The notes below the pieces were generated by a model, which worked only from the letters and a program-made list of their open reading frames with translations, was not told the origin of the DNA and did not search any database. Positions 4,408-63,579 of a DNA stretch of 64,000 nucleotides are shown here, piece after piece. Source of the stretch: a virus (Duplodnaviria > Heunggongvirae > Uroviricota > Caudoviricetes). The DNA lies in the IMG/VR virus record IMGVR_UViG_3300047320_000132, positions 67,101-131,100 of that record. The stretch is one strand, 5' to 3'. The stretch's first letter is position 1; each line of letters opens with the position of its first letter. Both the position numbers and the translations under genes were made by a program.

Positions 4408-5304
4408 ATGAAACTGAATCAGCCTTTTACCCGTCGCATCATTTCCCCTAACGAAGAACGTGTTGCATTCAATACACCGGAGCCGGTAAAGGCTGAGGTT
4501 TCTGAGGTTCCCCCTCTTACTCCGAAAGAAGACGATGTTCCTTCGTTAGTTTCGAATAAGCCTGAAGTGCCTAGACTTGAACGGGCTTCGTCGTCTAAGA
4601 AACAAGTTGAACTCAAGGTTCCGGGAGAGGAAGAAGTTGAAGCTTCAATAGCTATGACCGATGGCGAGGTGCTTTCGCCTGAACTTCGTCAAGCGGCAGA
4701 GCCGGAAGTTCCTGAGCTTCAGCCCAAGAAGTCTGTTGAAGATGTCCTTGCAATCCCTAAGCTTGTCGTTACTAAACGTGAGCCGGTAGCTGTAGATCCG
4801 ATTGACATTCCGAAACTCGATGCGTATAACACGATGGAGGTAGTTCATCTGTTGATCGGTCGTTCACCGGAAGACGAAGAGATCATTTTGCTTCAGTCGT
4901 TTCCTGAGCGCTTCGTTCGCACCAAGAAGACGGAGGAATTTCACGCTTCTCTGCTAGCCAGGGTAAGCAGTCACTACTCAAGTATGGTGGATGCCCGGAA
5001 GTATGATTTTGAGGAGCGTCAACATCACCATGTTCTTGCCCCTAAGCCTATTTCTGCTCTCCACGCTAATAAGGGCGTGGAATGGATGGCGTACGTGCTT
5101 GATGATGGTAAAGCTGCTGAAGCGGATATCATTGGCTATGCATTACAACATAGCGTAGCTGATACAGTAGCTATACGGGAAATCAATGAGGCAAAACTGT
5201 ATCAGAGGGATCCTTCTTACGTTTTCACCTGGGCATTGGTGAAAGTGAAGATCGGCCACGACTTCGGTTCCTACAAGTTGTCTGAACTGATGCCTTCGCT
5301 GTAA
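4408..5304 (+). CDS. hypothetical protein with Pro/Glu-rich N-terminal region
   Basis: 298 aa. Low-complexity PE-rich N-terminus and a globular C-terminus. Followed by a terminator hairpin at about 5305-5340. Confidence 0.5.
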   Translation: MKLNQPFTRRIISPNEERVAFNTPEPVKAEVSEVPPLTPKEDDVPSLVSNKPEVPRLERASSSKKQVELKVPGEEEVEASIAMTDGEVLSPELRQAAEPEVPELQPKKSVEDVLAIPKLVVTKREPVAVDPIDIPKLDAYNTMEVVHLLIGRSPEDEEIILLQSFPERFVRTKKTEEFHASLLARVSSHYSSMVDARKYDFEERQHHHVLAPKPISALHANKGVEWMAYVLDDGKAAEADIIGYALQHSVADTVAIREINEAKLYQRDPSYVFTWALVKVKIGHDFGSYKLSELMPSL

Positions 5305-5340
5305 CCTTGAAGGGGCCGAATCTGGTCCCTTATTTTTTAG
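5305..5340 (+). terminator. intrinsic terminator
   Basis: GGGGCCGAATCTGGTCCC hairpin followed by TTATTTTTT. Confidence 0.5.
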
Positions 5341-5540
5341 CCGCTTGGAGCCTCTCTTGAAGGCAGGACTAGGTTTGGTATCGACCAGGCAAGCCAGCCC
5401 GTCAGAGAGGCTGTATTGAAGTCTAAGAGGTATTCCAGTCCGAAGTTTGTGGTAGTTTTTCAGACAGAACTAGAGTCCTGAGAAAAACTGGACAGACGAT
5501 TAAAAAATTTCTTATTTAAAATCAAAGACTTAAACTAGAG

Positions 5541-5940
5541 TGTCCAATTTGTCCAATTTCACTTTGCGCTCTTGGACAGCCTCAAACGTATGCTGGCTAA
5601 GGCTTTCAGAGGATTTGTCCAATTGTCCAGTTTTTTTTCTCAACCATACCTCACTTCCTTTTTCACAATAAATTTACTAGAAAATAAAAACATAGGGTTT
5701 ACACCTAGAGTCTAAGAATCCGGGGGTCTTATATATATATAATATTTGAACTTTTTAAAAAATATATTTATATATAAGAGAGGTATTGTGGGTTTTGTAA
5801 AAAGATGTGTTACTCAATTAGAAAGTGAGGTATGGTTGAAAATTTTTTCTGGACAATTGGACAAATCCTCTGAAACCCAAGCTGGATAAGGCTTTGCGGC
5901 TGTCCAGTTTCATTTTATTTTTTGGACAAATTGGACACGA
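5541..5940. repeat. about 110-bp imperfect inverted repeat flanking an AT-rich core, built from TTGTCCAAT iterons
   Basis: The left arm (5541-5655) is the reverse complement of the right arm (5821-5940), sharing GGTTTCAGAGGATTTGTCCAATTGTCCAG and TTGTCCAATTTGTCCAA. A partial copy sits at 5941-6000. A further copy runs from 63874 to 64000 and is cut off by the window end. Confidence 0.7.
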
Positions 5941-6179
5941 AGCTCTGAAAGCCAAGCTGGGTAAGGCTTTGCGGGTTTTTGGGTTTGTCCAGTTTTTTTA
6001 AAGTCATCATTCAGGTCCTCTTTTGGTATAAGTAAAGTATGGAGAGAACTGTTGATTTCGCCTTCAGCAGAGTTCCCCTTACCTTGAATTGGGCTTACGA
6101 TTTCGTAGGGCCTTGACAAGTTGGTCTTTTACCGGAAGCTGATCCCCAATCTTCATCCGGTTTTTTTTGGTCAATTGAA

Positions 6180-7019
6180 ATGAACGACAACGTACAAACT
6201 ATCGAACAAATCCGTCACCTAGACTTCAAGGCGCTAGGTGACATGCATAAGAAATATGAGAAGAACTACTTCAGTGAAAAACTGATGCCTGGTCTTCCCA
6301 CGGTCATCCGTTTCGACGGCAACGCTTTTCACACGTTCACAAAGAACCTTAGCAAGCCTTACGACAAGGATCTGGCACAGACATTCCAATGCACGGTCGA
6401 CGATCTGATTCGAGATTTGAATCCTGATCTCGCATATCATCAAAGCGATGAGATCAGCCTCTTCTGGTTCAATCTCGATACTGAGAAACCTCTTGAGTTT
6501 GATGGTAGCGTTCAGAAGTGGTTGAGTGTGTATGCAGCAAAGTGTTCGGTTATTTTTAACTCGTACCTGCAGGGCTTTCTACCAAACAAGTTTGCTGAAC
6601 GCCCAGTCTTCGATGCTCGGGTATATCAGTATCCTCGTTGGGACCTGGCATACGATTATTTTATCTGGAGGCAGTGGGACGCCAGAAAGAATAGCGTAAG
6701 CATGGCTGCACACAGTGTCTTTTTTCATGGTGAACTTCACAAGAAGAACACTGCTGAGAAAATTGAAATGTTACGTGAGAAAGGCATCAACTTTGCAGAG
6801 TACCCAGAGTCGTTCCGTCAAGGCACGTTCACCCGTAAAGTTAAGAAGATCATGCTGATCGATGACGGAACCTGGAATCGTATCCCGGAGAAGCATCGCG
6901 GTAGCAGGGAAGTAGAACGTAGTGCGATCGTGAGGCTCACGAACATTCCGAAGCTTACGTCGTTGACGGTAAGCGATGGTAGTTTCAGGCTCTTCCACGA
7001 TCAAGCCAACGTTGCCTAA
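6180..7019 (+). CDS. Thg1-like protein (tRNA-His guanylyltransferase family 3'-5' nucleotidyltransferase)
   Basis: 279 aa. VIRFDGNAFHTFTK and AYHQSDEISLFW align to the Thg1/TLP catalytic motifs (VVRxDGRGFHKFTK, GQSDEISFVF). Confidence 0.65.
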   Translation: MNDNVQTIEQIRHLDFKALGDMHKKYEKNYFSEKLMPGLPTVIRFDGNAFHTFTKNLSKPYDKDLAQTFQCTVDDLIRDLNPDLAYHQSDEISLFWFNLDTEKPLEFDGSVQKWLSVYAAKCSVIFNSYLQGFLPNKFAERPVFDARVYQYPRWDLAYDYFIWRQWDARKNSVSMAAHSVFFHGELHKKNTAEKIEMLREKGINFAEYPESFRQGTFTRKVKKIMLIDDGTWNRIPEKHRGSREVERSAIVRLTNIPKLTSLTVSDGSFRLFHDQANVA

Positions 7020-13856: not shown

Positions 13857-15158
13857 ATGGCCGTACTTACTATCGGGTCTTCGAACCCCAAGTTTTCCTG
13901 GATCATTTCCAAGAACCCTGCAACGATTCGTGAAAGCGCAGAGCCCTACAAGAAATCGATCCGTCAAGGTATGGCGTATGGATGGTTCGGAGCCGATAAT
14001 CAGAGCTTTCGACTTTGGTTTAAAGACAGTCCTCAGAACTGTTCTTTTGCGGAGGGCATTGGCCAAGAGTTTGAATATCTTGACCGTACCCGTTACGCAT
14101 CTCCCTACTTGCCGATTTCGCTGATTACGAACTGTCTTGCTACAGCGTTCAAAACTGTTCAGGAAGAAGACGTTACTGAGCCGTGGAGCGCATATCTGGA
14201 AACTACGGTCGAAATTCGCAGCGCCAGCATGTTGAATCATCTGAATCAACACTTCAATGGTTCCTTCGGGTTGGACAATGGGTACAGCTTCGTAGCCGAG
14301 CATATTGCAGGCTGTGCGTACAAGGTCACTATCTCGGGACCTACCGTTCACGAAATGCTCAATGCGGCAATGGTAATTTTCCTGATGTTCTGCGTTTCGA
14401 CAAAGAGCATCTATGTCAACCTCAAGGGCGATATCGTTGAGAAGTACATTGCTGCGATCAATCGTATCAATGCACCGTACTTCATTCGTTACCTCTTCAA
14501 ACGGAATGTATTTTCAAATCGTGACACATTTCTTAAGAACAAATCGCTGCTTGATACGGACACGATCAACCTCTGGCACGGTGACACCCTTGCTCAGCGT
14601 AAAGAAGCTATCTTCCCCCACCTGGGAGGAGGAGCGACACTCGTTGACATTGGGTGCGGTGAACTCAATTACACGCTCCCACTCAGTTCGAAATATGAAC
14701 AGGTCCTTGCGTTTGAAGCGGATGACGAACTCCGCGAGAACATGCTTGAAAAACTCAAGGGACGAGAAGTCGAAAACGTTATTCTCCGAGATGCTGCAAC
14801 TCCCGAATCGATTGATGAGTGTTCCTTGCTCTTTAGCGGAGCAGACGTGCTCATCACAGAAGTTCTGGAGCACATTCCTCTTAAAGATGCAAAACAGCTT
14901 GTTGATGCCGTTCTGAAGACTGACTTTAACAAGTTGGTTATCACGGTTCCGAACAAGGCTTTCAATGTGAATTATCTGATGACAGAAGATCAGTTCCGTC
15001 ACGATGATCACAAGTGGGAAATGAATGAACAGGACTTCTACGATTGGTTCTGGAAAATCTCTAAGTCCCATGCAGTTTCAACTATCGGCCAAGGTATCGG
15101 CGATGCGGTAAATGGCGTTCACACTTCGACGATGCTTGTCGTAACGAAAAACAAGTAA
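13857..15158 (+). CDS. hen1: Hen1-like RNA 3'-terminal 2'-O-methyltransferase (partner of Pnkp)
   Basis: 433 aa. The C-terminal SAM methyltransferase motif I LVDIGCGELNY matches bacterial Hen1. The gene sits immediately upstream of the Pnkp-like gene. Confidence 0.7.
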   Translation: MAVLTIGSSNPKFSWIISKNPATIRESAEPYKKSIRQGMAYGWFGADNQSFRLWFKDSPQNCSFAEGIGQEFEYLDRTRYASPYLPISLITNCLATAFKTVQEEDVTEPWSAYLETTVEIRSASMLNHLNQHFNGSFGLDNGYSFVAEHIAGCAYKVTISGPTVHEMLNAAMVIFLMFCVSTKSIYVNLKGDIVEKYIAAINRINAPYFIRYLFKRNVFSNRDTFLKNKSLLDTDTINLWHGDTLAQRKEAIFPHLGGGATLVDIGCGELNYTLPLSSKYEQVLAFEADDELRENMLEKLKGREVENVILRDAATPESIDECSLLFSGADVLITEVLEHIPLKDAKQLVDAVLKTDFNKLVITVPNKAFNVNYLMTEDQFRHDDHKWEMNEQDFYDWFWKISKSHAVSTIGQGIGDAVNGVHTSTMLVVTKNK

Positions 15159-15167
15159 GGATCAACA

Positions 15168-17591
15168 ATGAAAATTCAAACTAAACTCCACACAGTCTTC
15201 ATTTTGGTTGGCCCTTCGATGTGCGGTAAAACCACATTCTCGAAACAGTTCGAACTTGTGTTGAACTTTCAGTTGATGAAAGCAGGACTTGCTGCAGGTT
15301 CGAAGGTTGTAAACTTGAATTCTGATGCTGAACGAATGAACGTCTTGGATGATTTGAGTCTCCATCGTTACGCTCCGGTCATGATGGAAGCTTCGGAAGC
15401 AGCTTTCAACGTGATGATGGCGAAGTTTAAAGCGGCAATTGCGTTCCCGATCAACAGTGAATTCGTAATCGTTGATACTACTGGTATGAACGATACGTTC
15501 CGAAAGGAAATTCGTAAACTCGCTGAAGAAAACGAATATCGTACTGAATTGATTACGTTTGAATATCCGAACTATCAGTACTGGTCGGAATCGAATGAGG
15601 AAGAAAAACGGGTTGTAGAATCGAGCGCCAAGCGATTCAAACAAAGCGTCCTTCCAAATCTCGGTCGTAAAGATCATGATGATTGTATTCGTATCCGTGA
15701 ACGAGACGCCAAAAAGTGGACAGATCTGGAAGTTGAAATCGAAGATTTGGGCAAGTACGCAGCTACTCAGCTCTATCTCGGTCGAGACATGCAGGTGAAT
15801 ATCATCGGAGATGTACATGAACACACGGAAGCTGCTGAACAGCTTGTAGCTAAGGTCGGTGCAAATAGCATCAATGTTCTTGTCGGTGATTACATTGACA
15901 AGGGTAATGACACTGCCAAAGCAATTGCCTTCGCCAGGAAGTTTCACACCGACGGCGGCATTATTGTCCACGGTAATCACGAATCGTATGCTGTGAAGCG
16001 TATCAAGGGTGAAATCAAAAACCCTGATCTGGAGATGGAATCGAAGTATATGAGTTCGCTTGACGTTCTGTTGAAAGACGAAACGTTGGCAGCAGAGCTT
16101 GTGGACTTGTTCGATCGCTGTTCTGTTCCGTTCTTGAAGATTCACGGCAACCAAGTCCGTACAGTTTACGTAACCCATGCTCCGTGCGAGCAGAAGTATT
16201 TGGGTAAGATGAGTTCTGCAGCACTTAAGGCTCAGCGCAATCTGTACGGTGATCGAAAAGAAGACTACCGGAAGGCTTATGAGTTTATTTTCAAGGAAGC
16301 TGTTGGGAATTTTCCTTTGCATGTGTTTGGGCACGTTGCTCACAATGCAGCCAAATTGGAACATCGTAACAAGGTGTTTCTCGATACTGGGGCTGTTTAT
16401 GGCGGCAAGCTTACTGCTTTCTGTTACAAAGGAAATCGTTACTGGTTTGATTCGGTTCAGGCAGCTGAAAAGGTAACGGTTCACAAGGGTCTTCAGAACT
16501 TCTTGACGACTCCGATAGCACCTCCGCAGAAGCCGTTCAATATCTACGACTACAAACTGTCGCCGGAAGATATGAGATTTCTGAAGCGTACTATCGCAAA
16601 CCGAGTTCAGTACATTTCAGGAACTATGGCCCCTGCCCCGTCGACTAACACTGAAATCGAAAGTCTTGAAGCTGGACTTGAGTATTTCAAAAGTCGTGGA
16701 ACGAAGCGGGTCATGCTTCAACCGAAGTACATGGGTTCACGTTGTCAGGCGTATCTATATCGTGGTAAGCCGGAAGAGTGTTTCCTGGTTTCCCGCAATG
16801 GCTTCAAGATTCGCATGACAGAAGACCTTACTGTTATGATTCAGGAACTGCTTGCTAAGTACGAAGGAGAAAGTATCGACTTCTGGCAAGAAGAACTGAT
16901 TCTTGATGGTGAACTTCTGCCGTGGACGACCCTTGGTAAAAGTCTGGTTGACGAACAGTTCCGTGCGTATGAAGGTTTGGTACGTTACGAACTGGATGCA
17001 TTGGCTAACGATGAGGAATTTGCCAAGTTGGGATTCAAGACAAAGGTCGACGTCGAAGCTCGTCAGACTGACTTGAAAGTGTTCAGCGAAACACTAGACA
17101 TCTATGCTCAGGAAGGCCGTCCAGAATACAGTGCATTCTCTATTCTGAAGGTTGACGGTAAGGTGTTTGGTGACAAATTCCAGATTGCAGATTCCTTTGA
17201 CTTGGTTAACCAGGACGACATCGTAATCATCGACCTTGAAAACGATAAAGAGGCTTTGGAAAATGCAAAGACTTTCTTCAACTGTAAAACCGTTGATGAA
17301 AAGATGGAAGGCCTTGTAATCAAGCCTCTTGACGGTACGGCAGATGTTGCACCGTATATGAAGGTTCGGAATGAAAATTACCTGACTCTTGTGTATGGCT
17401 ATGATTACAAGAACCGTTATGAAGCCCTGTGTCGTCAAAAACGTGTCGGCGGTAAGCTGAAGGTTTCTATCAAGGAACACGATCTTGCACTGGCAATGCT
17501 GACAGCAGACAATGGCCCTGCTCTGACTGAACTGGTTGTGAAAATGATCTCGCAACTGAATGAAGAAAAGACGCTGGATCCGCGTTTGTAA
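15168..17591 (+). CDS. pnkp: Polynucleotide kinase-phosphatase with ligase-like adenylyltransferase domain (bacterial Pnkp-type RNA repair enzyme)
   Basis: 807 aa. P-loop kinase ILVGPSMCGKTT. Metallophosphatase motifs GDVHE, GDYIDKGND, VHGNHES. C-terminal nucleotidyltransferase/ligase-like domain around QPKYMGSRC. Domain order matches Pnkp of the Pnkp-Hen1 RNA repair system. Confidence 0.8.
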   Translation: MKIQTKLHTVFILVGPSMCGKTTFSKQFELVLNFQLMKAGLAAGSKVVNLNSDAERMNVLDDLSLHRYAPVMMEASEAAFNVMMAKFKAAIAFPINSEFVIVDTTGMNDTFRKEIRKLAEENEYRTELITFEYPNYQYWSESNEEEKRVVESSAKRFKQSVLPNLGRKDHDDCIRIRERDAKKWTDLEVEIEDLGKYAATQLYLGRDMQVNIIGDVHEHTEAAEQLVAKVGANSINVLVGDYIDKGNDTAKAIAFARKFHTDGGIIVHGNHESYAVKRIKGEIKNPDLEMESKYMSSLDVLLKDETLAAELVDLFDRCSVPFLKIHGNQVRTVYVTHAPCEQKYLGKMSSAALKAQRNLYGDRKEDYRKAYEFIFKEAVGNFPLHVFGHVAHNAAKLEHRNKVFLDTGAVYGGKLTAFCYKGNRYWFDSVQAAEKVTVHKGLQNFLTTPIAPPQKPFNIYDYKLSPEDMRFLKRTIANRVQYISGTMAPAPSTNTEIESLEAGLEYFKSRGTKRVMLQPKYMGSRCQAYLYRGKPEECFLVSRNGFKIRMTEDLTVMIQELLAKYEGESIDFWQEELILDGELLPWTTLGKSLVDEQFRAYEGLVRYELDALANDEEFAKLGFKTKVDVEARQTDLKVFSETLDIYAQEGRPEYSAFSILKVDGKVFGDKFQIADSFDLVNQDDIVIIDLENDKEALENAKTFFNCKTVDEKMEGLVIKPLDGTADVAPYMKVRNENYLTLVYGYDYKNRYEALCRQKRVGGKLKVSIKEHDLALAMLTADNGPALTELVVKMISQLNEEKTLDPRL

Positions 17592-25820: not shown

Positions 25821-25893
25821 TCCGGAATAGCTCAGTTGGTAGAGCAACGCACTGTTAATGCGTGGGTCCCTGGTTCAAGTCCAGGTTTCGGAG
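25821..25893 (+). tRNA. tRNA-Asn (GTT)
   Basis: Acceptor TCCGGAA/TTTCGGA. Anticodon stem ACGCA/TGCGT, loop CTGTTAA. T-loop TTCAAGT. Confidence 0.75.
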
Positions 25894-25926
25894 CATAGCA
25901 TCGATAGGTTTAAGGGAAATTCTGGA

Positions 25927-25999
25927 GGGGATGTAGCTCCAATTGGTAGAGCAACTGCTTTGCAAGCAGAGGGTTATCGGTTCAAATCCGATCTTCTCC
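25927..25999 (+). tRNA. tRNA-Ala (TGC)
   Basis: Anticodon loop TTTGCAA. A G3-U70 wobble is present, which is the Ala identity element. T-arm ATCGG-TTCAAAT-CCGAT. Confidence 0.7.
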
Positions 26000-26004
26000 A
26001 GAAT

Positions 26005-26193: not shown

Positions 26194-26284
26194 GGAAGAT
26201 TGGCAGAGTCCGGCTTATTGCACTAGTCTTGAAAACTAGCAACCACTTGACGGTGGTTCATCCGTCCAAATCGGATATCTTCCT
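26194..26284 (+). tRNA. tRNA-Ser (TGA)
   Basis: Perfect 7-bp acceptor GGAAGAT/ATCTTCC. Anticodon stem CTAGT/ACTAG, loop CTTGAAA. Long variable arm. T-loop TCCAAAT, with C rather than U at position 55. Confidence 0.7.
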
Positions 26285-28702: not shown

Positions 28703-28780
28703 GCCCGTATAGCTCAGTTGGTAGTAGCACTCGCCTTGTAAGCGAGAGGTCACTGGTTCGAATCCTAGTTACGGGCACCA
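28703..28780 (+). tRNA. tRNA-Thr (TGT)
   Basis: Perfect acceptor GCCCGTA/TACGGGC. Anticodon stem CTCGC/GCGAG, loop CTTGTAA. The T-arm register is ambiguous (one extra nt or one mismatch). Confidence 0.6.
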
Positions 28781-31424: not shown

Positions 31425-31500
31425 GGGAATATAGCTCAGTTGGCAGAGCAGCGGATTCTAAATCTGAAGGTCTCGGGTTCGAGCCCCGATGTTCCTACCA
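31425..31500 (+). tRNA. tRNA with CUA anticodon (amber suppressor-type). Amino acid identity unresolved.
   Basis: A 76-nt canonical cloverleaf. Acceptor GGGAATA/TGTTCCT. D-arm GCTC-AGTTGGCA-GAGC. Anticodon stem GCGGA/TCTGA, loop TTCTAAA, so positions 34-36 are CTA. Short variable arm. T-arm TCGGG-TTCGAGC-CCCGA. A73. CCA encoded. Confidence 0.55.
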
Positions 31501-31614: not shown

Positions 31615-31938
31615 ATGTCTTACATTTATTCAATCATTCGCAAAGATATTCCCCTCGCAGATCAGATCGTTCAGACTGCGCATTCCGCATTTCACGCTGG
31701 CCAAGCCGATCCGAAAAACGGTGCGGCATTAGATTGTGAAATCCCTTCGCTGGTCCTCTTGCAGGTGCCAAACGAAGAAGCCTTGCTTGAGCTTCACAAA
31801 AAACTTAAGGCTGCAGGCATCGTTCACAGCACGTTCCACGAGCCTGACGATGACATGGGTTGGACGTCGATCACGACCGTGTCTATTAATCAGGAAGATC
31901 GTAAGCTCTTTAGTAATTTGCCTTTGTGGAGACCCTAA
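31615..31938 (+). CDS. divergent PTH2-like peptidyl-tRNA hydrolase candidate
   Basis: 107 aa. The N-terminus IYSIIRKDIPLADQIVQTAHSAFHAG parallels the PTH2 motif (vvRxDLxMxxGKxaAQxxHA). The rest of the protein is divergent. Confidence 0.4.
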   Translation: MSYIYSIIRKDIPLADQIVQTAHSAFHAGQADPKNGAALDCEIPSLVLLQVPNEEALLELHKKLKAAGIVHSTFHEPDDDMGWTSITTVSINQEDRKLFSNLPLWRP

Positions 31939-32166: not shown

Positions 32167-32212
32167 TCTTTACAACTTTTCTTTAGATGTATGTTTAGAG
32201 TAAAATAGAAAT

Positions 32213-32758
32213 ATGAACTCTGACATACTTCAACCCTTGATAGATATGGGATTGACAGCCAAAGAAATGAGTGAACATCTTGGCTGTTCAATTCATAAAG
32301 TAAAGTACTACATGAAAAAACTGGGTATTAAAACCCAGCTTGCCCAAAAGTACGATTCATACGTTTCGTATGAACAATTAAAAACTAAAATTTGCCGCTC
32401 TTGCAAATTAGAAAAATCTGTTTTTGAATTTAGAAAAGTTGTTATATCTGGTAAAGAAAAACCCGGCTCTTATTGCAAAGCGTGTGTAAAGCAACAAAAC
32501 TATGCAGCTAAAAATAGTATTAAAAAACAGGCCTTAGATTATAAAGGTAATAAATGCCAGTGTTGCGGATACGACAAATATGAAGGCGCTTTAGAATTTC
32601 ATCATTTAGATCCTAAAGAAAAAGACTTTCTTATTTCTAGATACGGACGAGACGCTACTTTAAATGACAAAGATTTATTTACAGAATTAGATAAATGTGC
32701 TTTACTGTGTTCCAATTGTCACCGTGAGGTTCATGCAGGACTCATTAAACTAGATTGA
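32213..32758 (+). CDS. HNH homing endonuclease with N-terminal HTH, paralog of the gene at 41978
   Basis: 181 aa. GNKCQCCGYDKYEGALEFHHLDPKEKDF...LLCSNCHREVH is near-identical in its C-terminal half to the 41978 protein. Confidence 0.75.
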   Translation: MNSDILQPLIDMGLTAKEMSEHLGCSIHKVKYYMKKLGIKTQLAQKYDSYVSYEQLKTKICRSCKLEKSVFEFRKVVISGKEKPGSYCKACVKQQNYAAKNSIKKQALDYKGNKCQCCGYDKYEGALEFHHLDPKEKDFLISRYGRDATLNDKDLFTELDKCALLCSNCHREVHAGLIKLD

Positions 32759-32760
32759 GT

Positions 32761-32770
32761 TTGGTATAAG
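32761..32770 (+). promoter_or_regulatory. TTGGTATAAG promoter motif upstream of the tRNA-like elements and the AAA+ gene
   Basis: TTGGTATAAGAGAATTGTG. Confidence 0.45.
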
Positions 32771-32798
32771 AGAATTGTGAAAGAACATTTCTTTTATA

Positions 32799-32868
32799 AA
32801 CAAAATAGCTCAATTGGTAGAGCGCACATACTCTTGTGAGGCTGGGGGCTCGTATCCCCCTTTTGTTA
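32799..32868 (+). ncRNA. tRNA-like element (pseudo-tRNA?) with canonical acceptor and D-arm but a defective anticodon arm
   Basis: Acceptor AACAAAA/TTTTGTT. D-arm TA-GCTC-AATTGGTA-GAGC. T-arm GGGGG-CTCGTAT-CCCCC. The anticodon region does not form a standard 5-bp, 7-nt stem-loop. Lies 28 nt downstream of a TTGGTATAAG promoter. Confidence 0.35.
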
Positions 32869-32884
32869 GCTTAGTAAACTTCTT

Positions 32885-32968
32885 GGGCGTGACACCGTGC
32901 GCTGGCAGGTAACGGCCTCATAAGCCGTCGGAGAAATCCCATCGTGGGTTGGAATCCCACCGCGCCCA
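32885..32968 (+). ncRNA. tRNA-like element with CAT anticodon loop, long variable arm and an over-extended terminal stem
   Basis: Acceptor GGGCGTG/CGCGCCC. Anticodon stem ACGGC/GCCGT, loop CTCATAA. 15-nt variable arm. T-arm GTGGG-TTGGAAT-CCCAC. The terminal helix extends to 13 bp (AACTTCTTGGGCG/CGCCCAAGAAGTT), which is not tRNA-like. Confidence 0.35.
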
Positions 32969-33052
32969 AGAAGTTTATTGAGAAGCTTTATAACCACCCC
33001 TCTGAAGTCTAGAGGGGTTTTTCTTTGCAGCACTTTTTGTAGCCTAATCGAT

Positions 33053-35116
33053 ATGGAAACGAAGGAAATCAACGTGAGTGACATTCAAGAACAAATCGCG
33101 GAATCGAATGCAGGCGCTGCTATTGGCGAAGTTGCCAAGGCTGATGTACCCGCTGTCGCTCCGGAAGTCGCTGCGGCGGCTGCACAAGCTGCAATGATCG
33201 CAGAAGTGGTCAAGGCTGCTCTCGAAAACGCCGGTCTTGGCAAGACGGATCCGATCGCAGAAATCGCGGCGATCTCGATCAGCAGCGACGAAATGCCTGT
33301 CGCTTCCCGTCCGATTGCAGAAGTGATTCCGGGCCGTACTGGACAGATCAAGGTTTATGTTCCGTATGACATTCGTGCGGACATGAACAACTATGGTCGT
33401 GTCATCGGCAGCCGTATGAACACGTCCACGAACGAGTTCAACTACATCAACAACCCGGCACAGTTCAACGTTGCTCGTGGCGCGGGTATGGTTGGCGGTC
33501 TGGAAATCTTCAAGAACCGTTCGAACATCGAATCGTACCTGAACAACCTGGACGACTACAACGACGATCAGGACTTCATCGAACGTGTTCGTTCGCAGAT
33601 GACCCGTATCCTCGAAGAAGTGAATGCGTTCTACGCAAACACTCTCGGCAATATCAGCAATCTGTCGGTCAACAACGAGTTCACGTATGACGAACTCGCC
33701 GTTCTCCTGGCTCAGCCTGGCATCAAGCTGGTTGTCGAAGACGACTTCGCCCTGGTTTGTGTTACGACTCACGCTGCAAGTCAGCAGATGAGCATGAGCG
33801 GCCCGTACATCGCTGCAGCTGGGCATATGTACGCACGTAACGGTCAGGAAATTCAGCAATTCACGCATCAGTACTACTTCGGTGGTTACGACGGCAAGAA
33901 GAGCCTGAAGGAACTGGGCATCACGCCGTTGGAATCGGATGCTGAACTCAAAGCCCGTCTCCTCGCTCGTGGCAAGCGCGGTGTCGAAGTTACGGCTTCG
34001 TCGTCGTACATGCAGTACAAGGGCGATCTGGTTCGTCGCGGCTACTGGAGCAACACGGCTTTCCGTTCGACGGGTCGTGTCATGATCGACTTCCAGGCAA
34101 TGCGTATCATGGATCCGAACTACCGCAAGTTCTTTGGCGGAACTCAGGATCGTGACTCGTACGGCTACACGGCCAAGGCTGAAACGGTGAAGCTGAGCGA
34201 TGACGTGTATCTGACGTTCTCGCCGTATGTTTATGGCTTCTCGTTCCTGTCGAAGGTCTGGGGTGAAATGCTGGTCGACAACATCACTCCGATTCAGTTC
34301 CGTACGGATGCTTACGGCAAGCTGGTGATGGACGAAGATCAGAAGGAAATGATCGTGTCGCTGGTGGAAACCCAGCTGGAAGGCAAGAAGGTCGACATCA
34401 TCGATGGCAAGGGTGGTGGCACGATTTTCCTGCTGGCCGGTGAACCGGGTACTGGCAAGACGCTTACTGCTGAAGTTACGGCAGAGCATCTGAAGCGTCC
34501 GCTGTACATGGTTGGCGTTGGCGAACTCGGGACGAGTGCCAGCGAGCTGGAAGACAATCTGCGTCAGGTTCTGGATATCGCCGCGACGTGGAATGCAGTG
34601 CTCCTGCTTGACGAATGCGACATCTTCATGGAAGCCCGTACGGATAGCAATATCCAACGGAATGCTATGGTCGGTGTTTTCCTGCGTCTGCTGGAATACT
34701 ATCAAGGCGTTCTGTTCCTGACGTCGAACCGTGCAAGCAACATCGACAAGGCGTTCTACTCCCGTATCAGCATGGCGATTAACTTCCCTGCGCTGACTAC
34801 TGGTGACCGTGTTCAAATTTGGGAGAACAACCTCAATATGAATTCGGTGCAACTCACCGCGACGGAAATTCTTTACCTTGCCGAAACCTACGAGATCAAT
34901 GGTCGTCAGATCAAGACGGCTACTCGCAACGCTTCGGCTCTGGCACTGAAAGGCAAGCGTCCGACGGACATCAAGGACTTCCAACTGATCCTCAACAAGG
35001 GTCTGGAATTCCAGAAGGCGGTGTTCGAACGTGGTGGCAAAAACGACATGACGTTGCTGGGCATGCACAAGGATGCTCACGTCGTTGCTGACGTCGAGTT
35101 CAAAGACGTTAAGTAA
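33053..35116 (+). CDS. Large AAA+ ATPase with an approximately 450-aa N-terminal domain of unknown function
   Basis: Walker A GEPGTGKTLTA. Walker B VLLLDECDIF. Sensor-1 LFLTSNRASNID. Arg finger region FYSRIS. Codons are visibly GC-rich compared with the flanking genes. Start moved to METKEIN. Confidence 0.75.
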   Translation: METKEINVSDIQEQIAESNAGAAIGEVAKADVPAVAPEVAAAAAQAAMIAEVVKAALENAGLGKTDPIAEIAAISISSDEMPVASRPIAEVIPGRTGQIKVYVPYDIRADMNNYGRVIGSRMNTSTNEFNYINNPAQFNVARGAGMVGGLEIFKNRSNIESYLNNLDDYNDDQDFIERVRSQMTRILEEVNAFYANTLGNISNLSVNNEFTYDELAVLLAQPGIKLVVEDDFALVCVTTHAASQQMSMSGPYIAAAGHMYARNGQEIQQFTHQYYFGGYDGKKSLKELGITPLESDAELKARLLARGKRGVEVTASSSYMQYKGDLVRRGYWSNTAFRSTGRVMIDFQAMRIMDPNYRKFFGGTQDRDSYGYTAKAETVKLSDDVYLTFSPYVYGFSFLSKVWGEMLVDNITPIQFRTDAYGKLVMDEDQKEMIVSLVETQLEGKKVDIIDGKGGGTIFLLAGEPGTGKTLTAEVTAEHLKRPLYMVGVGELGTSASELEDNLRQVLDIAATWNAVLLLDECDIFMEARTDSNIQRNAMVGVFLRLLEYYQGVLFLTSNRASNIDKAFYSRISMAINFPALTTGDRVQIWENNLNMNSVQLTATEILYLAETYEINGRQIKTATRNASALALKGKRPTDIKDFQLILNKGLEFQKAVFERGGKNDMTLLGMHKDAHVVADVEFKDVK

Positions 35117-44873: not shown

Positions 44874-44985
44874 CAAGTTTCAGTGCGGGTTTGGTATAGA
44901 TGAATGTGCAGCGGTTTTCCAAACCGACGAGACGAGTTTGATACTCGTAGCCCGCTCAAAGTATCTAAGGTAGAAAGTTCTTAGA

Positions 44986-45059
44986 GCCACTGTAGGATAA
45001 TGGATTAATCTCCGGAGCTTCTACCTCCGTTTATGCGAGTTCGACCCTCGCCGGTGGCT
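44986..45059 (+). tRNA. tRNA-Arg (TCT)
   Basis: Acceptor GCCACTG/CGGTGGC. D-arm GGAT-AATGGATTA-ATCT. Anticodon stem CGGAG/CTCCG, loop CTTCTAC. T-arm GCGAG-TTCGACC-CTCGC. No CCA encoded. Confidence 0.6.
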
Positions 45060-45356
45060 CTAAGTTCTTTCCCAGGAGTAACATTTTGGAAACCAATCAT
45101 GAAACTCAGAGCAATCTTCCTGTTTGTAGTAACGATGATGACGATGGCCTCGTGCGCAACACAGCCGAGCCCCGCGTATTACGCAAAGGATTCTTTCTTG
45201 CATGGCGTCTCAGCGACAACGAATTAGACCTCCCCGACGAGAAGGTTTGAACGAGGTTCTTGTCTCCAAAGCTAAGGGCGGCGGAGAGCATAAGAACCGT
45301 AAAGACAAACGAACGTATAAGCGTAAGCTTGACAAAGAGTCAAAGGAAGAGTTGGA

Positions 45357-60420: not shown

Positions 60421-61050
60421 AAAGTTCATGGGCCGTAGAAATGGATTATCTAATCCCAAATCGCAAGTCACAGGTTCGAGTCCTGTAACCCGCTGCAGTT
60501 GCGGGTTTAATTCAGTTGGCAGAATGGCGATTCCTGATTCTATTTCGATCTCTTGCCTATCTCAGTTTCACGAGCCGAATGTTCAAGGTTATCTACTAAG
60601 CCAAAGTTAGAATAAAGCGTATTACGCAGTTTCCGGAAACGGGATAGTACCTAGGTCTAACACCGTTGTACTCTGCTTGAGCTAAAGCTATCGCGGGTGA
60701 ATCCTGCATCTCCTTGACAATCCTTGCTCGTATCAAGTTTCACGACGAACCGAAAGCGTAGGGTTATCTACAAACTTCAATTGGTGAAAACTGTTAGGTC
60801 GAAAGACCATCTCCCTTGCACCACTTGTTCGTCTTCCGTTTATGCTGAACCGCTAGTATTGTGTTATCTCCATTATCAGGACGTATTTCAGGTTCGAATC
60901 CTGACGGCACAATTAAGAGCATTCTGTGTTCTTGGTTGTGCTGTAGTTAAACTGGTATAACGCGTAAAACGCGCAGTACACTCTTTGTTCAGCTTCAAGT
61001 TTGTGAGCCGTTCAGATTTGGATTATCCTTTTAAGATTTCCTCCAGATCA
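60421..61050 (+). repeat. five copies of an approximately 40-nt element AGTTTCAYGRGCCG...GGTTATCTAC carrying DnaA-box-like TTATCYACA cores. Two copies are followed by tRNA T-arm mimics.
   Basis: Copies begin near 60421, 60556, 60731, 60827 and 60981. GGTTCGAGTCC and GGTTCGAATCC stem-loops follow copies 1 and 4. Confidence 0.5.
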
Positions 61051-61956: not shown

Positions 61957-63579
61957 ATGTCTTTCAATTCCCTCTCTAACAATACCAACACCCGCACTCA
62001 AGCAAAGACTACGGTTCAGACCAAACCGGCTGGTAATGCTTCTGTCGCTCAAGTAAAGAACAACGCTGGCGGCTTTGTGTTTGAGGTAACGCCTCTGCAG
62101 AAGCTCGATCGTTTCCTGATCATCGGTACGAGCGGTGGTACGTTCTATCAGTCCGAGAAAGATATCACCAAGGCCAAGGTCGACGATATCGTCAAGTTGA
62201 TCCAAACGAATGGTAAGGTTGTGGTCGACCGTATCGTTGAGATCAGCCAGGCTGGTCGTGCCAAGAACAATGACTACGCGTTGCTTGCTATGGCGTTGGT
62301 CTTCACTCACGGTGACGTGGCTACGAAACTGTATGCCAAGGACAAAGTGAACCTCGTGGCTCGTACTGGCACACACTTTCTGCACTTCGTGAACTTCGCT
62401 TCCGGCCTTCGCGGATGGGGCCGTAGTCTTAAGAACGTTGCTCAAAAATGGTACTCGGATAAAACGGTAACAAATCTTGCGTATCAAGTCGTTAAGTACA
62501 AACAAAGAGACGGATGGTCGCACCGCGATGTTCTTAGACTCAGCCACGTAAAGCCTGGCGAAGACGTGGTTCGTCAAAACCTTTACAAGTACATCGTGAA
62601 GGGTCCGGAAGCGCTTGCTATAGGTGACCAGGTTCCTGAGCTTCTGATTGCAGTAGAAGAGGCTAAGACCTGCAACAAGAACAAGCTTGTACAGCTTATC
62701 GGCGAACACAGGCTTACGCATGAAATGGTCCCGAACGAAATGAAGTCGCATCCTGAAGTCTGGGAAGCACTCGTTCCGCATATGGGCCTGAATGCATTGG
62801 TTCGTAACCTGAACAAGCTGACGGCTGTTGGACTGATCAAGCCTTTCTCGGAAACGAGTAAGCTGGTCACGACCAAGCTTCTGGATGTGGAACAGCTTCG
62901 TAAGGAACGTCTGCATCCGATGTCGATTATCGTTGCTAAGAAGATCTACTCTCAAGGCAAGGGCGATAAGGGTTCGCTGGTTTGGACCCCGGACAATACC
63001 GTCAAGGATACGCTTGAAGCGGCGTTCTACCTTTCGTTCGACGCGGTGGAACCGTCTGGTAAGAATATTGTTCTGGCGCTTGACGTGTCAGGTTCAATGG
63101 GTTCGGCTATTCCGGGTGTTCCGCAGTTGACGTGTTGTGAAGGTGCTGCACTGATGGCTATGGTTTCGGCTCGTACGGAACCTTGGACTGAAGTGTTGGG
63201 CTTCGCTAAGACGTTCAAGCCGCTGAACATCACGAAGCACGATACGCTTGAATCGGCTACCACCAAGGCGCATGACTGGAACTTCGGTTCTACGAACTGT
63301 GCTTTGCCTGCTGAACATGCGCTTGCACACCGTTGGAACGTAGATGCGTTCTGTATCTATACGGACAACGAGACGTATGCTGGTAAACAGCACCCGTTTC
63401 AAGCAATGCAGAAGTATCGTCAGGGCATGAACAAGCCTGATGCAAAGCTGATCGTAGTCGGTATGGCAGTCAATGACTTCAGCATCGCAGATCCCAAGGA
63501 TCCGAACATGCTTGATGTTGTGGGCTTCGATACGCAGACGCCGCGTTTCATGTCTGAATTTATAGCTGGACGTATCTAA
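61957..63579 (+). CDS. rsr: Ro60/TROVE-domain protein (Rsr ortholog) with C-terminal vWA domain
   Basis: 540 aa. LQKLDRFLIIGTSGGTFYQSEKDI...IVKLIQTNGKVVVDRIVEISQAGRAKNNDYALLAMALVF aligns to the human Ro60 N-terminus (LHRFLCFGSEGGTYY...IRLIEDGRG...VIQEIKSFSQEGR...EPMLFALA). The C-terminal vWA MIDAS is VLALDVSGSMGS. Confidence 0.8.
   Translation: MSFNSLSNNTNTRTQAKTTVQTKPAGNASVAQVKNNAGGFVFEVTPLQKLDRFLIIGTSGGTFYQSEKDITKAKVDDIVKLIQTNGKVVVDRIVEISQAGRAKNNDYALLAMALVFTHGDVATKLYAKDKVNLVARTGTHFLHFVNFASGLRGWGRSLKNVAQKWYSDKTVTNLAYQVVKYKQRDGWSHRDVLRLSHVKPGEDVVRQNLYKYIVKGPEALAIGDQVPELLIAVEEAKTCNKNKLVQLIGEHRLTHEMVPNEMKSHPEVWEALVPHMGLNALVRNLNKLTAVGLIKPFSETSKLVTTKLLDVEQLRKERLHPMSIIVAKKIYSQGKGDKGSLVWTPDNTVKDTLEAAFYLSFDAVEPSGKNIVLALDVSGSMGSAIPGVPQLTCCEGAALMAMVSARTEPWTEVLGFAKTFKPLNITKHDTLESATTKAHDWNFGSTNCALPAEHALAHRWNVDAFCIYTDNETYAGKQHPFQAMQKYRQGMNKPDAKLIVVGMAVNDFSIADPKDPNMLDVVGFDTQTPRFMSEFIAGRI

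Follow-up and report, generated by a model that had tools for sequence, protein, structure and literature searches.

Within the window (the whole stretch of 64,000 nucleotides (nt) analyzed here, positions 67,101 to 131,100 of the IMG/VR virus record IMGVR_UViG_3300047320_000132, Caudoviricetes), positions 32761-33026 read as a self-contained phage transfer RNA (tRNA) transcription unit, its transcription being predicted from a promoter motif and a terminator that bracket two tRNA-shaped elements, which we call element 1 and element 2. It is likely, in our judgment, that this unit is a tRNA mini-operon in which element 1 does not decode, element 2 is a tRNA(CAU), probably of the Ile2 type, and a long helix belongs to the precursor. 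The parts of the unit, all on the plus strand, are as follows.

32761-32779, plus strand: putative promoter of the extended -10 type, with TG at 32762-32763, TATAAG at 32765-32770 and then the conserved AATTGTG.
32799-32868, plus strand: element 1, tRNA-like (Rfam tRNA model, 49.5 bits; no ARAGORN call).
32844-32868, plus strand: T-arm hairpin of element 1, resembling a weak terminator (five G-C pairs, then the U-rich 3′ acceptor strand).
32870-32884, plus strand: 5′ leader strand, pairing contiguously with 32968-32982.
32885-32968, plus strand: element 2, a tRNA(CAU) of 84 nt with a long variable arm (ARAGORN and Rfam).
32968-32982, plus strand: 3′ trailer strand, beginning at the discriminator A73.
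32996-33026, plus strand: intrinsic terminator from a terminator scan, with a 9-base-pair (bp) stem (32996-33018) followed by a U tract (-14.6 kcal/mol).

Element 2 has the complete cloverleaf of a tRNA, with a 7-bp acceptor stem, D and T arms (T arm at 32944-32960), and a 7-nt anticodon loop, CTCATAA (CUCAUAA in the RNA, CAT at 32919-32921), with U33 and a purine at position 37. The variable arm (32929-32943) is the 15-nt CGGAGAAATCCCATC, folded as GGA-GAAA-TCC with a 3-bp stem and a GAAA loop, and A73 lies at 32968 with no CCA encoded. The length of 84 nt, the loop and the 15-nt variable arm had all been described correctly in an earlier sequence-only reading of this DNA. A stem-loop variable arm of more than 10 nt places element 2 in class II, the anticodon, however, not being one of Leu, Ser, or Tyr. 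ARAGORN called it tRNA-Met(CAT), and the Rfam tRNA model scored it at 37.1 bits, above the gathering score of 29. Across 10 distinct homologues (the window, the metagenome relative L008, five viral contigs, Paraburkholderia, and one metagenome-assembled genome (MAG) each of Atopobiaceae and Planctomycetota), 18 of the 23 stem pairs had changed on both sides, with 99.6% of the alignment cells still paired; none of 500 shuffles reached these values, and slid controls came nowhere near them. Element 2 is thus a genuine tRNA gene whose cloverleaf is under selection.

The core of element 2 departs from the usual in several places. It has A8/U14 where tRNAs normally have U8:A14, the D stem is 3 bp long, and in our reading of the alignment the tertiary pair 19/56 is C19/G56 in the window versus G19/C56 in the rest of the family. 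Decay of the tRNA, as A8 and G56 might suggest, was ruled out by the matching partner changes U14 and C19.

The family was collected with a search pattern made of the anticodon loop and the variable arm. It picked up genes for tRNA(CAU) of 86-88 nt on five unrelated viral contigs, and further matches came from ~23 Paraburkholderia species, one Burkholderia, and the Atopobiaceae and Planctomycetota MAGs; copies on Cupriavidus megaplasmids (L084, pHG1) are 84-93% identical. Many homologues, in other phages and in Paraburkholderia, lack the long helix and end in an acceptor of 7 bp with A73 and a CCA that is encoded. A further exact pattern, GGCCTCATAAGCCGTCGGAG, matched only L007, by chance in coding DNA, and many matches of patterns in genome contigs were set aside either as chance matches in coding DNA or as 3′ half-tRNA att repeats.

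To compare the whole unit between phages, we fetched syntenic loci with the AAA+ ATPase gene downstream of the unit as an anchor. Among the IMG/VR relatives the ATPase is 73% identical in L001 and 63% identical in L002, L003, and L004; L008 and L009 are metagenome relatives found in the same way. The promoter, TTGGTATAAG at 32761-32770, lies 28 nt 5′ of position 32799, the distance already reported from sequence alone, and is kept 5′ of element 1 in L001, L002, and L009. The motif TGGTATAAG-N2-AATTGTG occurs in 12 copies in the window, all on the plus strand, against 0.67 expected (at 6024, 12609, 13780, 17612, 24300, 32762, 37279, 39222, 41249, 47414, 54412, and 59055), and the copies checked (e.g., 6024, 13780, 24300, 47414, and 54412) lie just outside called genes or tRNAs. 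This motif is probably the main promoter class of the phage, of the extended -10 type. A 5′ hairpin considered between the promoter and element 1 (AGAATTGT...ACATTTCT) is not kept in L002 or L009 and is more readily taken as part of the promoter motif.

At the other end of the unit, a hairpin followed by a T-run occupies the terminator position in L001, L002, and L003, the stem sequence differing in L002 and L003. The two elements had been placed between a promoter and the ATPase gene, and that placement holds; the intervening terminator had been overlooked, however, and because it precedes the ATPase start at 33053, elements 1 and 2 are not simply a leader of the ATPase gene. Between the terminator and the ATPase start, L001 and L003 share with the window the conserved sequence at 33027-33055 (GCAGCACTTTTTGTAGCC...AATCGATATG), which L002 and L009 keep in part. 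It has no obvious Shine-Dalgarno sequence and may represent a further class of promoter or a signal for translation.

Element 1 combines a 7-bp acceptor (32799-32805 with 32861-32867, AACAAAA/TTTTGTT), a D arm at 32808-32823 (GCTC-AATTGGTA-GAGC), and a T arm at 32844-32860 (GGGGG-CTCGTAT-CCCCC) with A73 at 32868 and no CCA. In place of the anticodon arm it has a mini-hairpin at 32825-32838 (CACA-TACTCT-TGTG), the 4-bp stem and 6-nt loop of which are 3 nt short of normal, so that the 5-bp stem and the 7-nt loop presenting a triplet are missing. The earlier description of a perfect acceptor, D arm, and T arm around a broken anticodon arm is thereby confirmed, and such an RNA cannot decode.

We found four distinct sequences of element 1 (the window, L001, L002, which is identical in L004 and L008, and L009), which are either uncalled or called as "tRNA-???" with a 2-nt anticodon. 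Their pairwise identity is 77-90%, compared with mostly 51-84% for orthologous true tRNAs, except for one pair at 100%. The D arm, the T arm, and the CACA/TGTG mini-stem are almost invariant among the four, while the loops (TACTCT, TCCA, ACTC, and CCTAAACC) are 4-8 nt long and unrelated in sequence; this variation in loop length and sequence ruled out a frameshifting tRNA with a 6-nt loop. The acceptor always consists of six A-U pairs and one C-G pair, and the position of the C-G pair shifts with compensation. Cultured phages gave no match to element 1 (blastn), and the D-arm plus T-arm pattern was found only in the same lineage and in one normal tRNA-Thr (L036). Since its conservation equals or exceeds that of the true tRNAs, element 1 is probably functional, acting through its acceptor and elbow and unable to decode.

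The T-arm hairpin was flagged by the terminator scan, with energies of -8.9 to -10 kcal/mol in three genomes, and all four homologues retain a U-rich 3′ strand of the acceptor. By eye (no terminator scan was run there), the only terminator-like feature between element 1 and the second promoter of L009 is this hairpin with its U tract. Speculatively, the hairpin and U tract would end a transcript near position 73. Candidate roles for element 1 are a processing or termination module and a protein-binding tRNA mimic. Known non-decoding tRNA-like RNAs are mascRNA and the stable RNAs C and D of phage T4; element 1, which combines an acceptor and an elbow with the lack of a usable anticodon arm and is located in a tRNA cluster, is comparable to them but has no sequence relationship to them.

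Several observations weigh against a function for element 1. Its conservation rests on four distinct sequences; it is dispensable, being largely deleted in L003, where the 5′ part has been lost; the T loop in the window is degenerate (C54/U58); and recombination between these phages, evident from a tRNA-Thr 100% identical between the window and L001, could have inflated its apparent conservation. The deletion and the degenerate T loop, together with the destroyed anticodon arm and a weak, A-U-rich acceptor stem, would also fit a functionless tRNA pseudogene in decay, which we regard as a possible, though not the likelier, account of element 1. Against such decay stand a conservation equal to or above that of the true tRNAs of the same genomes, the compensatory changes in the acceptor, and the retention of the element right behind the promoter in four lineages in which the ATPase is only 61-73% identical.

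For the amino-acid identity of element 2 we lean toward tRNA-Ile2, with elongator tRNA-Met as the main alternative. The same slot in L001, L002, L003, and L009, directly 5′ of the terminator and the ATPase gene, holds a standard tRNA(CAU) of 73-77 nt, and that of L001 is ~85% identical from end to end to E. coli genes annotated by PGAP as tRNA-Ile. L002 and L008 belong to one lineage with near-identical flanks, L002 having the standard tRNA and L008 the long-arm type; because the two have been swapped within such flanks, the standard and the long-arm tRNA(CAU) are interchangeable cassettes. Element 2 has the CAU anticodon and A73 required for tRNA-Ile2. Determinants for TilS are C4:G69 and C5:G68 in E. 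coli, with G3:C70 in addition for the TilS of Burkholderia (B. cenocepacia; PMC12514573). All three pairs are present in the copies from Paraburkholderia, L028, and L029; the window has G3:C70 and C4:G69 but G5:C68. If element 2 is tRNA-Ile2, it would read AUA once its C34 had been modified to lysidine by the TilS of the host.

The bacterial homologue offers a second line of evidence. In Paraburkholderia (L038-L081) the long-arm tRNA(CAU) lies ~125 nt 3′ of rpoD, with an upstream flank that is syntenic in 23 of 23 species and a downstream flank that varies; E. coli ileX is found in the same rpoD neighborhood. The Paraburkholderia gene is an integration hotspot, with a tyrosine recombinase next to it and 3′ half-tRNA direct repeats that start at the anticodon loop. 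Element 2 resembles bacterial tRNA-Ile2 of the ileX type in its CUCAUAA loop, A73, G3:C70, C4:G69, occupation of the Ile2 slot, and rpoD-adjacent homologue. It differs in a variable region of 15 rather than 5 nt, in a 3-bp D stem, and in A8/U14 rather than U8/A14, and the window copy differs further in C19/G56, a G:C pair at 5:68, and the lack of an encoded CCA.

Not all of the evidence points toward Ile2. Pair 5:68 of the window is G:C, not C:G; ATA is used 2.3 times per 1000 codons in the core genes of the phage as against 24 per 1000 in three homing-endonuclease genes; and the sequence by itself cannot settle the choice between Ile2 and elongator Met. The invariance of the variable arm across the family, for its part, is no evidence, because the search pattern had fixed its sequence. 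Elongator tRNA-Met, which we hold to be rather unlikely, would share the CAU anticodon and A73, would be the only elongator Met in the window, would match the use of ATG (26 per 1000 codons, compared with 2.3 for ATA), and would accommodate the G:C pair at 5:68 in both the window and L008. The other CAU tRNA of the window (28874) has the C1xA72 mismatch that marks the E. coli initiator, and we take it to be an initiator. What speaks against elongator Met is that sister phages have an Ile2-type tRNA in the same slot and likewise lack an elongator Met, and that the Paraburkholderia homologue is linked to rpoD and carries the TilS determinants.

Element 2 is closed by a helix of 22 bp, in which the 7-bp acceptor is followed by 15 further contiguous pairs (two of them G.U) between leader and trailer. 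A terminal helix continuous with the acceptor had been noted before, and the continuity is real; its length is 22 bp and not the 13 bp then given. Element 2 folded with this helix has a minimum free energy of -49.1 kcal/mol (z = -5.5), and none of 200 shuffles was as stable. In an alignment of four lineages, 12 of the 22 pairs had changed on both sides with 95.5% of the cells paired (0 of 500 shuffles match this), and one G.U pair is invariant in all four sequences. The invariant G.U pair and the double changes favor selection on an RNA over selection on a DNA palindrome.

Similar leader-trailer duplexes of 11-16 bp (-11.7 to -19.6 kcal/mol) flank four other tRNAs of the window.

25821-25894: tRNA-Asn with a flanking duplex.
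25927-26000: tRNA-Ala with a flanking duplex, which takes in the encoded CCA.
26194-26284: tRNA-Ser(TGA) with a flanking duplex.
44986-45060: tRNA-Arg with a flanking duplex.

These duplexes are continuous, or nearly so, with the acceptor stem, and no such duplex flanks any of the remaining 15 tRNAs of the window that encode CCA. Among 118 tRNAs from the window and 12 related loci, a strong duplex (-9 kcal/mol or stronger) flanks 7 of the 17 without CCA compared with 3 of the 101 that encode it (Fisher P = 3.5e-5). The same association is visible in the orthologous slot, where L001 and L009 encode CCA and have no helix, whereas the window, L002, L003, and L008 have the helix and no CCA. The 22-bp helix would therefore belong, on this reading, to the processing of the precursor and not to the mature RNA, and the earlier suggestion of "processing signals" was a fair guess for it. 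Pairing of leader and trailer would extend the acceptor stem into a precursor helix, which would either shield the ends or serve as a double-stranded substrate of an RNase III-like activity; RNase P cleavage, 3′ trimming, and CCA addition would follow.

The helix has the form of an RNase III processing helix, being ~20 bp or more, continuous, and covarying, and the leader-trailer helices of ribosomal RNA operons are RNase III substrates (PMC10250234). Those helices are likewise at least 20 bp long, formed from the flanks of stable RNAs, confined to the precursor, and covarying; here, in contrast, single tRNAs are flanked, the helix is continuous with the acceptor stem, and the nuclease role is a prediction. 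The inverted repeats might instead be recombination arms at the DNA level of a mobile tRNA cassette, which would suit the L002/L008 exchange of the tRNA together with its helix arms between otherwise near-identical flanks. We consider this improbable, given that G.U pairs are tolerated on the transcribed strand only, with one invariant in all four sequences, that the helix goes with a missing CCA, and that it is contiguous with the acceptor stem.

Long variable arms, the mark of class II, are in the textbook view restricted in bacteria to the tRNAs for Leu, Ser, Tyr, and Sec. The arm GGAGAAAUCC is nevertheless carried also by well-formed tRNAs for Asn, Cys, Lys, Gln, Thr, Trp, Glu, and Ile(GAU) on viral contigs (L090-L209), and in the copies inspected by eye the discriminator fits the anticodon (Asn G73, Cys U73, Lys A73, Trp G73, and Thr A73). 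A cultured case is the 88-nt tRNA-Asn of Pseudomonas phage vB_PF_Y1-MI (L089, 592-679). Relatives of the window phage also have oversized tRNAs with an extra arm of 3-6 bp, including a Met(CAU) with GCC-GUAA-GGC, Lys of 86 nt, Glu of 87 nt, Gln of 89 nt, and Cys of 89-90 nt (L002 1716-1796; L016 1949-2034 and 5794-5975; L018 2419-2508; L019 1171-1259); the Met(CAU) with GCC-GUAA-GGC occupies the slot of the initiator-type tRNA of the window. Class-II-shaped versions of class-I tRNAs are thus common in viral contigs. Searches of the literature, limited in coverage, turned up no account of the long-arm tRNA(CAU), of element 1, of arm-bearing class-I tRNAs, or of phage tRNAs with leader-trailer helices, which is no proof of novelty.

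The arm also bears on whether element 2 could be a mis-decoding class-II tRNA that leucyl- or seryl-tRNA synthetase (LeuRS or SerRS) charges, so that Leu or Ser would be inserted at AUG or AUA in the manner of allo-tRNAs. GGAGAAAUCC is the commonest variable arm of tRNA-Leu in viral contigs (66 of 103 calls), A73 is compatible with Leu, E. coli LeuRS disregards the anticodon (PMC9976931), and allo-tRNAs with mismatched anticodons are known (PMC5389517). Leucine identity for an E. coli-type LeuRS requires A73, A14 (in a U8:A14 pair), A15-U48, and correct placement of G18G19 (PMC9976931). The element 2 family has A8/U14 and G15/C48, and because A14 and A15-U48 are absent, leucine identity is unlikely. 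Since, in addition, the discriminators of tRNAs with the same arm track the anticodon (Asn G73, Cys U73, Trp G73) and the Paraburkholderia copy is a core gene with an ileX-like position and TilS determinants, mis-decoding is very improbable. At 43-53%, the identity between element 2 and the phage's own tRNAs for Leu, Ser, and Tyr is uninformative.

Element 2 shares with class II tRNAs (Leu, Ser, and Tyr) an arm of stem and GNRA-type loop, the 3-bp D stem, and GGAGAAAUCC as found on viral tRNA-Leu; it differs in having the anticodon of a class-I isoacceptor and a core without the LeuRS elements A14 and A15-U48. The irregular and allo-tRNAs of bacteria and phages (Mukai et al., PMC5389517) are similar as non-standard cloverleaves in phage tRNA clusters with class-II-like bodies and unexpected anticodons. 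The acceptor/T stems of allo-tRNAs, however, are 8/4 or 9/3 and their identity is Ser, whereas element 2 has 7/5 stems and a discriminator in keeping with its anticodon.

The sequence-only reading had raised the possibility of a Y RNA- or YrlA-like RNA, formed by element 2 and perhaps also by element 1, that binds the phage Ro60 protein (Rsr) or PNPase, and had called the long closing helix on a tRNA-like domain "exactly" the Y RNA/YrlA feature. The window does encode Ro60/Rsr along with other RNA-repair genes, element 2 is truly closed by a long helix, and the D arm of element 1 equals the YrlA consensus D arm, which is also the generic tRNA consensus. YrlA (RF02553) has in common with the elements the tRNA-like D and T arms, the long closing helix, and a Ro60/Rsr encoded by the phage. 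Its Rfam consensus, however, is permuted (T arm, a closed acceptor-like hairpin, then D arm), with a loop-closed acceptor and no anticodon loop, and its closing helix, toward the Ro site, grows from the equivalent of the anticodon stem and not from the acceptor; in elements 1 and 2 the arms follow one another as in any tRNA, and the anticodon loop of element 2 is canonical. The check proposed at the time, with tRNA, YrlA, and transfer-messenger RNA (tmRNA) covariance models, gave tRNA matches for both elements; the YrlA, Y_RNA, and tmRNA models of Rfam gave no match in 32600-33150 even at E <= 10, and no tmRNA was found in the window by ARAGORN or by Rfam.

YrlA is also encoded beside rsr, within a few kilobases (kb), and the Rsr gene of the window is ~29 kb from elements 1 and 2. 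Two sub-threshold YrlA matches, at 60462-60530 (28.1 bits) and 60886-60961 (23.3 bits; gathering score 69), lie instead ~1-1.5 kb 5′ of rsr and 27.5-28 kb from the elements, and the first folds in the permuted YrlA topology; these two are likelier Rsr partners than elements 1 and 2. The outcome that had been named as speaking against a Y RNA was essentially what we obtained, tRNA finders calling element 2 a long-variable-arm tRNA, and because homologues end in a normal 7-bp acceptor, A73, and CCA without the helix, and helices of the same type surround ordinary tRNAs, we reject an Rsr or PNPase ligand here as scarcely tenable.

The unit lies in what is probably part of the genome of a large lytic phage that encodes genes for DNA replication and nucleotide metabolism. 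Two genes adjoin it.

32213-32758, plus strand: HNH homing-endonuclease gene (weak Pfam HNH match), in an insertion region at 32167-32760.
33053-35116, plus strand: AAA+ ATPase gene (Pfam AAA, 1.3e-17), 3′ of the terminator.

The HNH gene is flanked on its 5′ side by a conserved gene, the product of which ends in ...DGEALIN*, and on its 3′ side by the promoter. L003 has an HNH open reading frame at the same place (about 5300-5752), the two proteins being 45% identical; the insertion is missing from L001, L002, L008, and L009, in which the promoter directly follows the upstream gene. The two genomes that carry it, the window and L003, are both genomes with an altered or truncated element 1. No cultured phage matched 31000-35000 by megablast. 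By the ATPase, the closest cultured relatives are Rhizobium phages (39-43% identity), and the one of them that was inspected, Rhizobium phage B1VFA, carries no annotated tRNA in the vicinity of this gene.

The tRNA island of the window extends over 24.3-45.1 kb, with 22 ARAGORN calls and 2 calls by Rfam only. At 44885-44956 the Rfam tRNA model scores 37.9 bits where ARAGORN makes no call; the sequence lacks CCA and by eye reads as tRNA-Gly(TCC), in which neither loop is canonical, the D loop being without a clear GG and the T loop being TTTGATA. A suppressor-type tRNA with the anticodon CTA (amber) is found at 31425-31500, and the same slot in L001 (4988-5063) has TCA (opal); there is no sign of wholesale recoding, TAG occurring once among the codons of 16 confident genes. 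The tRNA-Thr at 28703-28780 is 100% identical to that of L001 (1060-1137), other orthologous tRNAs being 58-81% identical, which indicates a recent recombination between these phages.

Genes for RNA repair and tRNA maintenance are encoded at 6180-7019, 13857-15158, 15168-17591, and 31615-31938, comprising a Thg1-like 3′-5′ nucleotidyltransferase, Hen1 and Pnkp (kinase, phosphatase, and ligase), and a PTH2-like peptidyl-tRNA hydrolase; the Ro60/Rsr gene (TROVE and vWA domains) is at 61957-63579. The repair and maintenance set is compatible with a phage that counters tRNA-targeting host defenses. More broadly, the gene content (Pnkp/Hen1, the Thg1-like protein, PTH2, Rsr, and a near-complete tRNA set) fits a phage fighting over tRNA integrity. 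A joint proposal, doubtful as it stands, is that the extra arm, on element 2 as on the many class-I isoacceptors of viral contigs (Asn, Cys, Lys, Gln, Glu, Thr, Trp, and CAU), is a phage adaptation that would reshape the tRNAs beyond recognition by tRNA-targeting nucleases or toxins of the host and that element 1 is a new non-decoding tRNA mimic; such a mimic would use its acceptor and elbow, possibly as a decoy for an acceptor-directed toxin or as a self-terminating tRNA-shaped RNA.

For annotation, standard tools mislabel the long-arm tRNA(CAU) as tRNA-Met and overlook element 1. The link between the helix and the missing CCA points to an alternative route of tRNA maturation in phages. A class-II-shaped CAU tRNA that probably stands in for Ile2 in a phage and belongs to the core, rpoD-linked genes of Paraburkholderia goes beyond the textbook classes; should the charging of such tRNAs follow the anticodon, the architecture of phage tRNAs would be more plastic than has been assumed, and the question raised is whether the arm serves to evade tRNA-targeting defenses, for modification, or for stability.

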